Shown: positions 49,362-60,308 of the stretch, piece by piece | Position numbering within the stretch: the first letter of the stretch is position 1 | Layout: each line of letters begins with the position of its first letter | Origin: Chitinophagaceae bacterium MMS25-I14 | GTDB taxonomy: Bacteria; Bacteroidota; Bacteroidia; Chitinophagales; Chitinophagaceae | Direction of reading: 5' to 3' | NCBI GenBank assembly: GCA_052161885.1 | Contig: CP197396.1 | Coordinates: 678,399 to 742,398 of the forward strand | DNA: 64,000 bases | Notes under the pieces: model-generated | The model's input: only the letters and a program-made list of their open reading frames with translations | Databases searched by the model: none | Told to the model about the DNA's origin: nothing | Program-made: the position numbers and the translations under genes

Positions 49362-50567
49362 ATGAATGCAAAGCTACAAAGCAAAACAAGCAGTTATCAG
49401 GATGCGGTGCTCGCAAGAGAGGCCGGCATCTACCCTTATTTCAGGCCAATATCTTCTGCCCAGGATACGGAAGTGATCATTGATGGTAAGAAAGTGCTGA
49501 TGTTCGGTTCCAATTCGTACCTCGGTCTTACCAACGATGCCCGCATTAAAGAAGCCACTAAAGCCGCCATTGACAAATACGGTTCCGGTTGCGCCGGTTC
49601 CCGCTTTCTGAATGGTACACTGGACATACACCTGGAGCTCGAGCAACGGCTCGCAGCCTTTACAGGCAAAGAGAATGCCATTATTTTCAGTACCGGTTTC
49701 CAGGTAAATCTTGGTGTGATATCCAGTCTGCTGGGCCGCAATGATTACCTGATCCTTGACGAATATGATCATGCCTCTATTATAGATGGCAGCCGTCTTT
49801 CCTTTGCCCGTACTGTAAAGTTCAGGCATAACAATATGGCCGACCTGGAACAGAAACTTCAGAACATGCCTTACGAAGCATTGAAACTCATAGTGGTAGA
49901 TGGCATTTTCAGTATGGAAGGCGATATCGTGAAGCTACCGGAAATAACACAGCTCGCAGAAAAATACAATGCTGCCATAATGGTAGATGATGCGCACAGC
50001 CTGGGCGTTATCGGTAAGAATGGAGCAGGCACAGCCTCACACTTCGGCCTTACAGATAATGCAGACCTTATTATGGGCACCTTTAGCAAATCAATGGCGT
50101 CGCTGGGCGGCTTTATTGCATCAGACAATGCAACCATCGATTACCTGAAGCATCATGCGCGTTCACTGATATTCAGTGCCAGTATGACGCCTGCCGCTAC
50201 GGCCAGCGCACTTGCAGCGCTTACCATCATCGAAACAGAGCCGGAACATATGGAACGCCTCTGGGCCAATACGCACTATGCACGAACACTGCTCCGCGAG
50301 GAAGGTTTTGATATAGGAGAATCTGAAACACCGATCATCCCGATATATATCCGTGATAACGAAAAGACATTCCATATTACCAAAGCATTGCAGGAAAACG
50401 GTGTGTTCGTAAATCCTGTGGTGTCTCCTGCCGTAGCACCGGATGCAACATTGATCCGCTTCTCCCTTATGGCCACGCATACATTCGGCCAGATCGAAGA
50501 AGCTGTTGATAAAATGTCAAAAACATTCCAGGCTGCAGGTGTTGCCATGATAAAAACAACTGTATGA
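49362..50567 (+). CDS. spt: serine palmitoyltransferase-like alpha-oxoamine synthase (PLP-dependent, first step of sphingoid base synthesis)
   Basis: Alpha-oxoamine-synthase family. The PLP-Lys region reads [13 protein letters not shown]. Length 401 aa. It is the first gene of the ceramide/inositol operon. Confidence 0.8.
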
Positions 50568-51685
50568 TCCAGATAGAAAAAGCAGACAATAAATTCATGC
50601 TGAAGGAATTTATTGACTTCCCGCATAAGTTGTACCAAAACGATGTGAACTACGTACCGGAACTGTTTATTGCACAACGCGATATGCTCACCCCGGGAAA
50701 ACACCCGTTCCATAAGCATTCCACCCTGCAGCCATTCCTGGCGCTGGACCATGGAAAAGTAGTAGGCCGCATTGCTGCTATACTCAACAGGAACCACAAC
50801 GATTTTAACAACGCGCAGGACGGATTTTTCGGCTTTTTCGATACAACAGAGAACCCGGAAGTTGCGGACAGATTGCTGGATGCAGCGCAGAAATGGCTGA
50901 AAGAAAACGGGGCAAAAACAGCCATAGGCCCCGTCAATTTTTCTACCAATGAAACCTGCGGCATGCTGATCGAGGGATATGATATGCCCCCGGTTGCCAT
51001 GATGACCTACAACAAACCGTACTACAACAAATTTGTAGACGATGCAGGCTTCAAAAAGAAAACAGATCTCATCGCCTGGCAGATAACCAGCGATGATTAC
51101 GATGACAAGCCACTGCGCATGACCAACCTGCTGCGTGAACGCCTGCAGCAGAAAGGCATTACCATACGCAAGGCCAACATGAAGAACTTCAAGCAGGAAG
51201 TGGAAAACCTGCAGGATATATACAATAAGGCATGGGATAAGAACCTGGGCTTTGTGCCCATGACCAAAGAAGAATTTGAGTACATGGCCAAAGACATGAA
51301 ACTAATCCTCGATCCTGACTTTTGCCTGGTGGCAGAACACAACGGAAAAGCGATCGGCTTTGCACTGTGCATCCCGGACATCAACCAGGTACTGATAAAA
51401 ATAAAGAACGGCAGGCTGCTTCCTACCGGCATATTCAAGCTGCTGTTTGGCAAAGGAAAAATAAACGCGCTGCGTGTAATAGCGCTTGGCGTACTGGAAC
51501 CATATCGCAAGATGGGTATCGAAGCGGTTTTCTATGGCGACATTATACAGAAATGCCTCGAAAAAAACATTAACACCGTAGAAGCCTCCTGGATACTGGA
51601 AGACAACTTCCTGATGAATAAAGCCATTGAGAATATAAAAGGAAAGCCTTATAAGAAGTACCGGATTTACGAAAAAGAAATTTAA
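50564..51685 (+). CDS. GNAT-fold N-acyltransferase-like protein, candidate bacterial ceramide synthase
   Basis: 373 aa. The start overlaps the spt stop by 4 nt (ATGA). Its position between the Spt-like and CerR-like genes mirrors the spt-cerS-cerR gene set described for bacterial ceramide synthesis. Confidence 0.55.
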
Positions 51686-51687
51686 CA

Positions 51688-52674
51688 ATGAAAGGAAAAG
51701 TATTGGTAACCGGAGCAAGCGGTTTTATTGGGTACCACCTGGTAGAAGCACTTGTAAAGGTAGGTTATGAGGTTACGGCAGCAATAAGACCTTCCAGCGC
51801 AACGGATCACCTGGAAGACTTTAACCTGAAATACGTATACCTGGATTTCACCTCTGCAGAAGAAATAAGGCAGCACCTGGATGAAAAACAATACGAGTAC
51901 ATTATACATACCGCAGGTATAACCAAAGCCTCTGGGGAAACAGTATATAATGAAGTCAATGCCATATATACACAGAATCTTGCAATTGCTGCATCAGTTG
52001 CACAGATACCGCTGAAGAAATTTGTCTTCATAAGCAGCCTGGCCGCATTGGGCCCACGCTACTACGAAGACCCGACACCTATACGGGAAGTAAGTCTGCC
52101 CAATCCGGTAACGGCATACGGCAAGAGCAAACTGCTGGCAGAACAATACCTGAAAAACATAGAACTGCCCATTATCATCCTGCGTCCAACCGGCGTATAC
52201 GGTCCGCGTGAACGCGATTTCCTGGTAATGTTTAAAACACTGGCAAAAGGATTTGAACCATATATAGGACGCAAAAAACAACTGCTGAGCTTTGTGTATG
52301 CAAAAGACCTTGTACAAAGCATATTGCTGGCGATGCATTCGGACGTTACCGGAAGAACCTACAATGTATCGGACGGCCAGGTATACGACCGTTACGAACT
52401 GGCCAACCTGACAAAGAAGATATTGGGACGCCGCACTTTTAAAATACATATTCCGCTGCCTGTAGTAAAGCTGATAGCCAGTATGAATGAAGCAATGGCA
52501 AGCGGAGGCAACACACCGGTGCTTAACAAAGAAAAACTCCAGGAGCTGACCGCAGAAAACTGGAACTGCAGTATAGACAGTATAGTATCAGAACTGGGTT
52601 ACCTGCCGCAGTACAACCTTGAAAGAGGACTTACCGAAACACTGCAATGGTACCAGAAGAATAAATGGTTATAA
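51688..52674 (+). CDS. NAD-dependent epimerase/dehydratase-family reductase, candidate CerR-like ceramide/3-ketosphinganine reductase
   Basis: VLVTGASGFIGYHLV Rossmann N-terminus and a YGKSK (YxxxK) motif. Length 328 aa. Confidence 0.65.
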   Translation: MKGKVLVTGASGFIGYHLVEALVKVGYEVTAAIRPSSATDHLEDFNLKYVYLDFTSAEEIRQHLDEKQYEYIIHTAGITKASGETVYNEVNAIYTQNLAIAASVAQIPLKKFVFISSLAALGPRYYEDPTPIREVSLPNPVTAYGKSKLLAEQYLKNIELPIIILRPTGVYGPRERDFLVMFKTLAKGFEPYIGRKKQLLSFVYAKDLVQSILLAMHSDVTGRTYNVSDGQVYDRYELANLTKKILGRRTFKIHIPLPVVKLIASMNEAMASGGNTPVLNKEKLQELTAENWNCSIDSIVSELGYLPQYNLERGLTETLQWYQKNKWL

Positions 52675-58741: not shown

Positions 58742-58747
58742 ATCACC

Positions 58748-59374
58748 ATGCCTAAGAATTTTGTATCTAATTCAAAAGAGTCCGTCCGGATGTTTAAAAG
58801 CGACTTTATGGAAAGCCTTTCCAAGGTTCATTTCTCCGTACCGCTTATTATTTACATACCGGTTATAGCTTACTTTACCTACCGGGCGCTGGTGCAGATC
58901 AGCCTGCCGGCATACCTGTTGTATTTTGCCATAGGCATTGCAGTATGGTCGCTTGCTGAATATCTGCTGCACCGTTTTGTATTCCATTTCGTGCCCAAAT
59001 CAAAATGGGGCCTGCGTATGCACTTTATCTTTCACGGTGTGCATCATGACTACCCTAATGACGTAAAACGCCTTGTAATGCCGCCTTCAGTGAGCATTCC
59101 GCTGGCATTCCTGTTCTACTTTATCTTTTCCTTTATACTGCCGCAGGAGCATCTGTTTGCTTTCTTCCCGGGCTTTGTAACAGGCTACCTTTTCTATGAT
59201 ATATCGCATTATGCGCTGCATCATTTCAATTTTAAGGGCAACTTCTGGAAGAGGCTGAAGAAACATCATATGTTGCATCATTACTCAGACTCATCAAAAG
59301 GATACGGTGTGAGCTCACCGCTCTGGGACAAAATATTTTCTTCAGATTTTATTAAAACCAACGATGAACGATAA
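58748..59374 (+). CDS. fatty acid hydroxylase / sterol desaturase superfamily protein (candidate sphingolipid hydroxylase)
   Basis: His boxes are present (HRFVFH, HGVHH, HHMLHH). It is a membrane protein. Confidence 0.7.
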   Translation: MPKNFVSNSKESVRMFKSDFMESLSKVHFSVPLIIYIPVIAYFTYRALVQISLPAYLLYFAIGIAVWSLAEYLLHRFVFHFVPKSKWGLRMHFIFHGVHHDYPNDVKRLVMPPSVSIPLAFLFYFIFSFILPQEHLFAFFPGFVTGYLFYDISHYALHHFNFKGNFWKRLKKHHMLHHYSDSSKGYGVSSPLWDKIFSSDFIKTNDER

Positions 59375-60308
59375 TACCTCTGCTGTAACACTTAAGACGG
59401 TTTCCGGCTTACAGCGGATACTGCTGATGGTCTGCATCACTGCGGGCTACCTGCTGCTTTCTTATATCCTTATCGGCTTCCGGCCGGAACAGCTGTTTCT
59501 TTCCGCTGCTGTAAACCTGCTTTATTTTGCCTCTGCACCATCGCGCAAATTCATCAGCGGTTTTGCCGTGTTTGTTGTGTACTGGATCATTTTTGATTAC
59601 ATGAAAGCTTTTCCTAACTACCGGTTCGGAGATGTGCATATCGCGAGTATTTACCATGCTGAGAAGGCAATTTTCGGCATTCACTATAATGGCCTTTACC
59701 TGACACCGAATGAATTCTGGCTCCAAAACGGCAGCACACTGCTCGACGTAGTATCCGGTTTTTTCTATCTTACCTGGGTACCCGTTCCGTTGTTATTCGC
59801 AGCTTACCTGTTCTATAAAAACAAGAAACAATTCCTGTATTTCTCCTACACATTTCTGCTGGTAAACCTTATTGGCTTTGTGATCTATTATGTCTGCCCT
59901 GCTGCCCCGCCCTGGTATGTGCAGCAATACGGATTTACCTTTCAGCCGCATACACCGGGCAATACAGCCGGTCTTGCAAAGTTTGATGAATACTTTCATG
60001 TATCCATATTCAATTCGTTGTATGCCAAGAGCTCCAATGTATTTGCAGCCATGCCTTCCCTGCATTCTTCATATCCTGTTATCGTATTTTACTATGGGCT
60101 GAAAAACAGGCTGGGTCTTATAAACATACTGCTGGGCACTATTATGTGCGGTATATGGTTTGCGGCAATATACACGGGGCATCATTACATTTTGGATGTG
60201 CTTGCCGGGATTATGTGTGCGTGTGCAGGAATAGCTTTATTTAATATGCTGGGCAAAAGAGGATTTATAAAGAACGGACTTGACAAACTGGCCATCGCCA
60301 TATCCTGA
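59364..60308 (+). CDS. PAP2-superfamily polytopic membrane protein (candidate inositol-phosphoceramide synthase, AUR1-like)
   Basis: 314 aa with about 8 TM helices. PAP2-like C-terminal motifs are present (PSLHSSY, GHHYILDVLAG). It overlaps the upstream gene by 11 nt. Confidence 0.5.
   Translation: MNDNTSAVTLKTVSGLQRILLMVCITAGYLLLSYILIGFRPEQLFLSAAVNLLYFASAPSRKFISGFAVFVVYWIIFDYMKAFPNYRFGDVHIASIYHAEKAIFGIHYNGLYLTPNEFWLQNGSTLLDVVSGFFYLTWVPVPLLFAAYLFYKNKKQFLYFSYTFLLVNLIGFVIYYVCPAAPPWYVQQYGFTFQPHTPGNTAGLAKFDEYFHVSIFNSLYAKSSNVFAAMPSLHSSYPVIVFYYGLKNRLGLINILLGTIMCGIWFAAIYTGHHYILDVLAGIMCACAGIALFNMLGKRGFIKNGLDKLAIAIS

Follow-up and report, generated by a model that had tools for sequence, protein, structure and literature searches.

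Organization of the locus

The stretch of DNA analysed here (64,000 nucleotides of contig CP197396.1 from Chitinophagaceae bacterium MMS25-I14, positions 678,399 to 742,398; hereafter the window) harbors at 49362-60308 a compact row of ten plus-strand genes. They likely represent a conserved operon for the de novo synthesis of inositol-phosphoryl-(dihydro)ceramide, the N-acyl chain of which is probably 2-hydroxylated. The genes are listed below with protein lengths in amino acids (aa) and the basis of each assignment.

49362..50567, plus strand: gene 1 (spt), serine palmitoyltransferase (Spt), 401 aa; NF047600 (SerpalmtaseCFB)
50564..51685, plus strand: gene 2 (bcerS), homologue of the bacterial ceramide synthase (bCerS), 373 aa; alignment with Caulobacter bCerS
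51688..52674, plus strand: gene 3 (cerR), CerR-like extended short-chain dehydrogenase/reductase (SDR), 328 aa; alignment with Caulobacter CerR
52711..54036, plus strand: gene 4, myo-inositol-3-phosphate synthase (MIPS), 441 aa; PF07994 (362 bits) and PF01658 (110 bits)
54042..54488, plus strand: gene 5 (pgpA), PgpA-family phosphatase, candidate phosphatidylinositol-phosphate (PIP) phosphatase (BT_1525-like), 148 aa; PF04608 (137 bits)
54490..54861, plus strand: gene 6 (gtrA), GtrA-family small membrane protein (BT_1524-like), 123 aa; PF04138 (82 bits) and the same position as BT_1524
54858..57425, plus strand: gene 7, DUF5686 outer-membrane protein, 855 aa; signal peptide, CarboxypepD_reg/SusC-NTE-like (N-terminal extension) domain, beta-rich middle domain and predicted C-terminal Omp85-like barrel
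57446..58741, plus strand: gene 8, PIP synthase (PIPS) with a DUF4833 domain, 431 aa; NF052561
58748..59374, plus strand: gene 9, Scs7/FA2H-type fatty-acyl 2-hydroxylase without a cytochrome b5 domain, 208 aa; Scs7 match in the PDB
59364..60308, plus strand: gene 10, candidate AUR1-type inositol-phosphoceramide (IPC; phosphoinositol dihydroceramide, PI-DHC) synthase, 314 aa; NF052609 and AUR1

The coordinates of all ten genes match the list of open reading frames (ORFs) exactly, and the successive junctions measure -4, +2, +36, +5, +1, -4, +20, +6 and -11 nt. Hence the largest gap spans 36 nt and three junctions overlap, two of them as ATGA start/stop overlaps at 50564 and 54858 and the third by 11 nt at 59364, just as a preliminary description of this DNA had reported. 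Its domain calls are likewise borne out by Pfam and NCBIfam for each of the ten products. The longest ORF of gene 7 would start at 54711, but the lengths of its orthologues (846-868 aa) and their signal peptides at the very N-terminus support the start at 54858. The GC content of the locus (0.42-0.49) equals that of its flanks and thus gives no hint of a recent acquisition.

A scan for terminators and inverted repeats found no hairpin in any of the gaps between the ten genes. Across 48900-60700 the number of terminator-like hairpins is about twofold higher than in shuffled sequences (20 vs. 11.2 +/- 3.4); they are all weak (stems of 5-7 bp), located within coding sequence and mostly on the minus strand. 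Co-orientation, short or overlapping junctions and the lack of an intergenic terminator are the hallmarks of an operon, and the ten genes probably form a single transcription unit. An AT-rich 7-bp hairpin directly after gene 10 was spotted by eye; it was reported neither by the inverted-repeat nor by the terminator scan and is not claimed as a terminator.

The ceramide module

The protein encoded by gene 1 exceeds the equivalog cutoff of NF047600 (729 vs. 640 bits) and covers 393 of the 395 profile positions, which substantiates its initial designation as Spt. Its best solved structure is the Spt of Sphingobacterium multivorum (3a2b/8guh; 586 bits), whereas the scores of the cysteate acyltransferases 28eh and 7u7h do not go beyond about 226 bits.

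Gene 2 shows a weak GNAT match in Pfam and none in NCBIfam, so a reference protein from Caulobacter was needed for its assignment; a PDB sequence search with this protein returned no match. The NCBI entries that are 100% identical to genes 2 and 7 are named "hypothetical protein" and "DUF5686 family protein", respectively. The cloning primers for spt, bcerS and cerR were taken from the supplement of PMC11087976. The bcerS forward primer matched three Caulobacter contigs, and an ORF of 384 aa from C. vibrioides DSM 9893 (L003:2150-3304; L numbers designate retrieved loci), which is bracketed by exact matches of both published bcerS primers, served as bCerS reference. Its alignment with gene 2 is full-length, covering 369 of 373 aa at 34% identity, 55% positives and an E value of 7e-73. 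Membership of the GNAT-like protein in the bCerS family, which had been singled out in advance as a decisive check, is thereby corroborated, and gene 2 is predicted to catalyze the N-acylation of 3-ketosphinganine or sphinganine.

The cerR forward primer retrieved 53 loci, mostly random ones, and only L016 (metagenome contig FWPV01015963.1), which it matches exactly, represents the Caulobacter locus, as documented by an exact match of the spt forward primer. This locus comprises an acyl-ACP-synthetase-like gene, cerR (1400-2353), the gene for an acyl carrier protein (ACP) and spt in this order. The cerR reverse primer matched nothing in the metagenome scan, nor L016 even with three mismatches allowed; the printed primer text or the 3' end of the gene in this strain may differ. 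Gene 3 is 26% identical to Caulobacter CerR from end to end (330 aa, E 5e-27). Since extended SDRs cross-match widely, a hidden Markov model was built from eight orthologues of gene 3. It scores CerR with 89 bits and a control set of four sugar-nucleotide SDRs from E. coli, to which HpnA-type and 3-beta-HSD-type enzymes do not belong, with 53 (RfbB), 36 (RfbD), 17 (Gmd) and 12 bits (Fcl). HpnA is the top NCBIfam match of both gene 3 and Caulobacter CerR. The NAD(P)-binding motif G9ASGFIG15 (GxxGxxG) and the catalytic motif Y144GKSK148 (YxxxK) are present in gene 3. The earlier proposal of a CerR candidate therefore holds in part: the protein is closer to CerR than to the E. coli sugar-nucleotide SDRs, but at 26% identity its designation as CerR, which we regard as likely, draws partly on the gene context.

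The head-group module and the acyl hydroxylase

Genes 4, 5, 6, 8 and 10 are colinear with BT_1526, BT_1525, BT_1524, BT_1523 and BT_1522 of Bacteroides thetaiotaomicron. MIPS (gene 4) shares 77-90% identity with its orthologues in related loci. The phosphatase (gene 5) was compared with the N-terminal 123 aa of BT_1525, translated from a gBlock in the supplement of Heaver et al., and is 39% identical over 113 aa (E 3e-21); it stays well below the equivalog cutoff of E. coli PgpA (71 vs. 226 bits). The synthase part of gene 8 (aa 7-238) surpasses the cutoff of NF052561, the equivalog model of BT_1523 (407 vs. 350 bits), exhibits the signature D79xxDGxxAR...GxxxDxxxD105 (DX2DGX2AR...GX3DX3D) and matches mycobacterial PIP synthase structures. 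The correspondence to the B. thetaiotaomicron cluster that had been proposed earlier is hence supported by gene order, by the NF052561 score of gene 8 and by the similarity of gene 5 to BT_1525.

The only NCBIfam match of gene 10 is NF052609 (PhinosDhcerSyn) with 313 bits, E 2e-93 and 280 of 305 positions covered, which is below the equivalog cutoff of 480 bits. Its only PDB matches are chains of yeast AUR1 (best 9vj3, E 1.4e-14). The motifs PSLH234S and H273H274YILD278 align with PSLH255SG and H293H294YFVD298 of AUR1, whose residues H255, H294 and D298 we take to be catalytic. The family score, the AUR1 match and the aligned His/His/Asp residues link this PAP2-like protein to the IPC synthase family, the second relationship that had been set beforehand as critical. 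Judged from these alignments, gene 10 is of the AUR1 type and homologous to BT_1522, yet outside the range of NCBI orthologues.

Gene 9 had been described as a fatty-acid hydroxylase that modifies the lipid, and this function gains a precise counterpart: its only PDB matches are two constructs of yeast Scs7 (4zr1 and 4zr0; best E 2e-34 over aa 12-199), and its four histidine boxes (H75, H92/H96-99, H154-159, H173-178) are retained. The alignment is confined to residues 182-370 of 4zr0, the hydroxylase domain of Scs7, and the missing cytochrome b5 domain implies that a separate electron donor is required. An Scs7-type enzyme predicts a product with a 2-hydroxy acyl chain. Naka et al., a study cited by Heaver et al., reportedly found ceramide phosphoinositols with 2-hydroxy acyl chains in Sphingobacterium spiritivorum in 2003.

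Conservation of the locus in Bacteroidota

For comparison, ten related loci were selected via homologues of gene 2, gene 7 or DUF4833, so that co-occurrence in all ten documents tight linkage of the genes and not how common the locus is. They span the Chitinophagales, Cytophagales and Sphingobacteriales. The full ten-gene order is conserved in seven of them, namely, in Chitinophaga defluvii, a Chitinophaga-like metagenome contig, Taibaiella soli, Flavipsychrobacter, Rufibacter aurantiacus, Pontibacter sp. SGAir0037 and Chryseolinea lacunae (50-90% amino-acid identity), and the other three are close variants. This recurrence is indicative of a lineage-wide design rather than an oddity of MMS25-I14. 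Gene 10 is kept at the end of the locus in nine of the ten cases, always on the same contig as bcerS.

One variant is the Mucilaginibacter type (two loci), which retains spt, bcerS, MIPS, DUF5686, PIPS, DUF4833, the hydroxylase and PAP2 and lacks pgpA and gtrA; cerR is present in L064 and absent from L062 of M. robiniae. Both loci exhibit a strong GC-rich terminator hairpin with a T-run after MIPS (L062 6366-6674, L064 6310-6699), and the palindrome AATCAATCATTTGATTGATT in front of the DUF5686 gene is conserved between them. The cluster is thus organized in two units there, and the palindrome is a likely operator. The second variant is found in Dyadobacter sp. CECT 9275 (L063 1-11183), where bcerS, cerR, DUF5686, DUF4833 and the hydroxylase are arranged around another group of head-group genes. 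This group comprises an NTP transferase, a 289-aa protein without family assignment, a CDP-alcohol transferase, LPG_synthase_TM, a HAD hydrolase and a PfkB kinase. Within L063 1-11183, neither a MIPS nor a PAP2 gene is visible. DUF5686, DUF4833 and the hydroxylase are accordingly linked to the ceramide genes and not to one particular head-group chemistry.

Individual loci show further peculiarities. The metagenome-assembled genome of Flavipsychrobacter carries an extra Lipid_DES/FA_desaturase gene, similar to sphingolipid delta-4-desaturases, between the hydroxylase and PAP2 (L060 18719-19726), which suggests that some relatives make unsaturated ceramide instead of dihydroceramide. The hydroxylase at the conserved position in C. 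defluvii (L057 18208-18828) is only 38% identical to gene 9, compared with 64-78% in the other loci, and may represent a replacement by a paralogue. Efflux genes lie directly upstream of spt in four loci (L058 1034-8610, L060 4062-8550, L062 1-2310 and L064 1-1363). They encode a TolC-like OEP, a membrane-fusion protein and transporters of the RND (ACR_tran/MMPL) or MFS type, and in Rufibacter they are accompanied by MarR regulators and a small ACP-like gene. Their location is reminiscent of an MmpL gene beside spt that is mentioned for Myxococcus (10.64898/2026.04.12.717747).

Proposed pathway and alternative interpretations

The enzymes are recognized by homology, and we infer the chemistry of the pathway from their characterized counterparts. 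Spt would condense serine with an acyl thioester to 3-ketosphinganine, which bCerS would N-acylate before the CerR-like reductase reduces the 3-keto group, an order that is adopted from the Caulobacter model. The Scs7-like enzyme would hydroxylate C2 of the amide-linked acyl chain. In the second branch, MIPS would convert glucose-6-phosphate to inositol-3-phosphate, PIP synthase would join it to CDP-diacylglycerol and the PgpA-like phosphatase would strip the phosphate to yield phosphatidylinositol (PI). The branches would finally meet at the AUR1-like PAP2 enzyme, which is expected to move phosphoinositol from PI to ceramide. This scheme is consistent with the intact catalytic motifs of genes 3, 8, 9 and 10, and the homologous five-gene cluster of B. 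thetaiotaomicron is needed for the synthesis of both PI and IPC (PMC9246714, PMC8791184). Every enzyme of the locus matches a characterized counterpart, and its initial interpretation as a candidate complete IPC locus thus stands at the level of homology.

Five observations weigh against this interpretation. The score of gene 10 lies beneath its equivalog cutoff. The low identity of gene 3 to CerR is of limited value in a family as promiscuous in sequence searches as the extended SDRs, and gene 3 lacks a signal peptide although CerR is periplasmic in Caulobacter; the Caulobacter protein likewise lacks one. The terminator after MIPS splits the cluster in the Mucilaginibacter type, and a single transcript is hence not universal. 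Finally, no inositol-lipid band was found in Flectobacillus major despite predicted homologues of the cluster (Heaver et al., PMC9246714), which shows that the genes do not guarantee the product under laboratory conditions.

The cutoff of gene 10 and the missing band of F. major could be reconciled with two modules that adjoin but do not converge, with PI destined for membrane or capsule, ceramide channelled into another sphingolipid such as ceramide phosphoethanolamine and gene 10 acting on another substrate. In B. thetaiotaomicron the cluster also makes phosphoinositol diacylglycerol (PI-DAG), and inositol reaches the capsule. We consider this scenario improbable, because the only family and structural matches of gene 10 are IPC/PI-DHC synthases with a preserved catalytic triad, because it ends the locus in nine of the ten relatives on the very contig of bcerS, and because a ceramide-type acyl hydroxylase sits between PIPS and gene 10. 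Far more remote is a locus for capnine-type sulfonolipids, in which gene 1 would be a cysteate acyltransferase (SulA/CapB) and genes 2 and 3 the N-acyltransferase and reductase of capnine. Bacteroidota of the Cytophaga group are the classic producers of sulfonolipids, and the first enzyme of their synthesis is an Spt homologue (PMC9304779). However, the scores of gene 1, i.e., above the Spt cutoff and far higher for S. multivorum Spt than for the solved cysteate acyltransferases, disfavor this alternative, and the C1 sulfonate could not accept phosphoinositol, yet an AUR1-like transferase is encoded. There is a somewhat greater, though still small, chance that the cluster is transcribed in several pieces, with internal promoters, e.g., before gene 7 or gene 8, that drive sub-operons. 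The terminator and the conserved palindrome between MIPS and DUF5686 in the Mucilaginibacter type point in this direction, as do a second plus-strand TAnnTTTG motif inside gene 7 at 56963 and the elevated number of weak hairpins within genes. The short or overlapping junctions, the gaps free of hairpins and the feeble internal stems argue for one unit in MMS25-I14, and sub-operons would leave the encoded functions of the locus unchanged. The synthesis of an inositol-phosphoryl-(dihydro)ceramide from a single operon accordingly remains our preferred interpretation.

DUF5686, DUF4833 and GtrA as possible envelope partners

The locus also encodes two conserved envelope components, DUF5686 and DUF4833. 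Gene 7 combines a signal peptide, an N-terminal domain that resembles the N-terminal extension of SusC/TonB-dependent receptors and a C-terminus ending in ...RFKFDF. Its predicted model (predicted template modeling score, pTM, 0.55) suggests an Omp85/BamA-like barrel in agreement with Foldseek, and Omp85 insertases match better than porins or TonB-dependent receptors. The sequence identity to Omp85 proteins amounts to only 7-12%, and the Pfam scan of gene 7 revealed no POTRA family; as far as the model goes, the likeness is one of fold and not of family membership. A DUF5686 protein of Tannerella forsythia is listed among the outer-membrane proteins in a vesicle proteome.

The second component is the DUF4833 domain, the fusion of which to PIP synthase was overlooked by the preliminary description. 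It occupies the C-terminus of gene 8 (aa 291-428, nt 58316-58729) after an extra hydrophobic segment (aa 249-267), and has a gene of its own (about 180-200 aa) in Rufibacter, Pontibacter, Flavipsychrobacter, Chryseolinea and Mucilaginibacter. Both of the two stand-alone proteins inspected carry a signal peptide, so the domain should act in the periplasm. A library-wide search for DUF4833 yielded 1255 representative clusters, nearly all of them small stand-alone proteins, and a structure comparison found neither a match to a solved fold nor a recognizable lipid-binding fold. In the searchable literature, outside of which most subscription journals lie, the two families surface only in a proteome table, which lists DUF5686, and BT_1527 only in one passing remark of Heaver et al., shared by the preprint and the published version.

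The genes for DUF5686 and DUF4833 are embedded in the locus in all ten relatives, and together with the hydroxylase they stay beside bcerS and cerR in Dyadobacter despite the swapped head-group genes. This fidelity to the ceramide genes where the head group differs makes them candidates for the delivery of sphingolipids to the outer membrane. How sphingolipids get to the outer membrane without sphingolipid-specific Lpt paralogues was called a "mystery" in a 2026 preprint (10.64898/2026.04.12.717747), which describes the periplasmic and outer-membrane steps as unresolved, reports a single lptFG copy in Bacteroidetes and suggests an alternative pathway as a possibility. The sphingolipid locus of Caulobacter encodes paralogues of LptF/LptG; the present locus is devoid of Lpt genes but encodes an inner-membrane, a periplasmic and an outer-membrane protein that are uncharacterized, and these points, together with the data on loss of GtrA in B. 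thetaiotaomicron, motivate our proposal. GtrA in the inner membrane, DUF4833 facing the periplasm and the DUF5686 barrel in the outer membrane would together handle the lipid after its synthesis, across and between the membranes, as suggested by topology, fold and invariant linkage. That DUF5686, DUF4833 and possibly GtrA, as an inner-membrane flippase, represent the "alternative transport pathway" left open for Bacteroidetes is a tentative idea, which we consider possible but rather doubtful. Loss of the GtrA homologue in B. thetaiotaomicron decreased IPC and increased PI in one study (PMC8791184) and had no phenotype in thin-layer chromatography in another (PMC9246714).

With close to an even chance, DUF5686 and DUF4833 are not lipid transporters at all but, for example, an uptake channel for inositol or phosphate compounds, a pair that modifies or senses lipids, or a surface protein that depends on the lipid. 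DUF4833 lacks a recognizable lipid-binding fold, the N-terminal domain of gene 7 is like that of SusC-type importers, and Bacteroidota could route their sphingolipids via the canonical Lpt pathway. A role in trafficking is favored by the strict retention of both proteins with the ceramide genes, which they track even when the head-group module is exchanged, and by a predicted barrel that is nearer to Omp85 insertases than to porins or TonB-dependent receptors.

Putative promoter region, TetR regulator and neighboring genes

The region upstream of spt and the gene following the operon contain three further features.

49289..49296, plus strand: candidate Bacteroidota-type -7 promoter box TACTTTTG (motif TAnnTTTG), 66 nt upstream of the spt ATG
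49297..49322, plus strand: conserved operator-like or leader element GACTGAAAAACGATTTTAGTCGAAA, directly 3' of the -7 box; recognized in the alignment
60413..61021, plus strand: TetR-family regulator (PF00440, E 2.4e-16), the eleventh co-oriented gene, 104 nt after gene 10

The motif TAnnTTTG is not enriched in the whole window (46 found vs. 54.5 expected), and the evidence for the box is thus its position and conservation, not its count. Only two plus-strand matches are present in 49129-60308, the other being the one inside gene 7. The box occupies the same alignment column 5' of spt in Taibaiella, C. defluvii, Chryseolinea and Flavipsychrobacter. The downstream element shows few changes in the first three and is partially retained in the fourth, and both features hold their position across five loci. 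The element is partly palindromic (GACT.AAAA / TTTTAGTC) and may be the binding site of the adjacent TetR. Transcription probably starts at this conserved promoter about 60 nt upstream of spt, and the TetR protein may control the operon through the element at 49297-49322. A scan for sigma-70 promoters returned 16 sites compared with 22.1 in shuffled sequences, with a consensus that is unsuited to Bacteroidota, and an Rfam scan of 48800-60700 yielded a single sub-threshold snoRNA match and no recognized riboswitch or leader RNA.

The TetR gene had likewise escaped the preliminary description. Its product shares 71% identity with the TetR encoded at the corresponding site in Taibaiella soli. Homologues border the locus in L057, L060, L061 and L065, and in L067 and L068 it is adjoined by genes with a TetR_N domain. 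The minus-strand ORF at 60335-61051, a candidate convergent neighbor, has no family match, overlaps the TetR gene and is probably spurious. On the other side, the divergent upstream neighbor (44680-49128, minus strand) encodes a protein of 1482 aa that combines a PhoD-like phosphatase domain with three Laminin_G_3 domains and a C-terminal sorting domain for type IX secretion; a tie to phosphate or inositol-phosphate metabolism is conceivable. Three successive minus-strand ORFs of 261, 242 and 420 aa at 61108-63952 have no Pfam match even at E <= 1.

Significance and comparison with known systems

Every enzymatic step is already known, and the work on B. thetaiotaomicron and Caulobacter covers the chemistry. 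What appears new is the fusion of the two modules and their two invariant partners, DUF5686 and DUF4833. The fused operon is not described in the literature searched, and according to one survey the genes for Spt, bCerS and CerR do not form a cluster in sphingolipid-producing Bacteroidota (PMC11334938). The syntheses of bacterial sphingolipids and of inositol lipids were each elucidated as late as 2021-2022, at distinct loci of different organisms; free-living members of the Chitinophagales, Cytophagales and Sphingobacteriales appear to encode the whole route as a compact, probably co-regulated unit. The locus would represent a portable minimal gene set for rebuilding an inositol sphingolipid in a heterologous host, and on its basis inositol-phosphoceramides with 2-hydroxy acyl chains are predicted to occur widely among Bacteroidota of soil and water. 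Guilt by association nominates DUF5686 and DUF4833 for the outer-membrane delivery of sphingolipids in bacteria without sphingolipid-specific Lpt paralogues, thereby turning an acknowledged question of sphingolipid transport into a concrete genetic test. While the gene set and the 2-hydroxy prediction extend known biology, the delivery role, if true, would be a real advance and would for the first time assign the handling of lipids to an Omp85-type barrel that lacks POTRA domains.

Among the closest known systems is the cluster BT_1522-BT_1526 of B. thetaiotaomicron (PMC9246714, PMC8791184), which comprises the same five functions in identical order. It differs in that Spt (BT_0870) is encoded elsewhere in the genome, whereas the present locus has spt, bcerS and cerR joined to its 5' end and additionally contains the DUF5686 gene within the operon, the acyl 2-hydroxylase and the DUF4833 domain. 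Gene 8 passes the model of BT_1523, while gene 10 stays below that of BT_1522, and the host is a free-living member of the Chitinophagaceae instead of a gut inhabitant of the Bacteroidales. The "alternative" cluster of the B. vulgatus type (NTP transferase, CDP-alcohol phosphatidyltransferase, HAD hydrolase; Heaver et al., PMC9246714), the function of which still awaits confirmation even in Bacteroides, differs from the module used here. It is, however, fused to bcerS, cerR, DUF5686, DUF4833 and the hydroxylase in Dyadobacter, which follows the same design of ceramide plus head group.

The ceramide module has its counterpart in Caulobacter: all three proteins have full-length homologues here, with identities of 34% for bCerS, 26% for CerR and about 40% for Spt (compared with the Caulobacter-type Spt on L016). 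Stankeviciute et al. are said to have defined the pathway of Caulobacter crescentus in 2022, with Spt, bCerS and CerR encoded by CCNA_01220, 01212 and 01222. The three genes are spread over about 10 kb there, but adjacent and overlapping in MMS25-I14. The Caulobacter locus also includes genes for ACP, an acyl-ACP synthetase and the LptF/LptG paralogues (10.64898/2026.04.12.717747), none of which is found here; two genes of the LptF/LptG family are located directly upstream of bcerS (L003 70-2150). A stretch similar to CDP-alcohol phosphatidyltransferases is present in the Caulobacter sphingolipid region as well (L001 5332-5526).

Yeast AUR1 and Scs7 are the only relatives of genes 10 and 9 with solved structures. 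The AUR1 triad and the histidine boxes of Scs7 are kept, but the bacterial gene 10 is far shorter than AUR1, and gene 9 dispenses with the N-terminal cytochrome b5 of Scs7. The Omp85 superfamily (BamA, TamA, Sam50, Toc75) is resembled in fold by the modelled barrel of gene 7, which stands apart in sequence and in its N-terminus, where CarboxypepD_reg and an uncharacterized beta-rich region are present and no POTRA domain was detected by Pfam.

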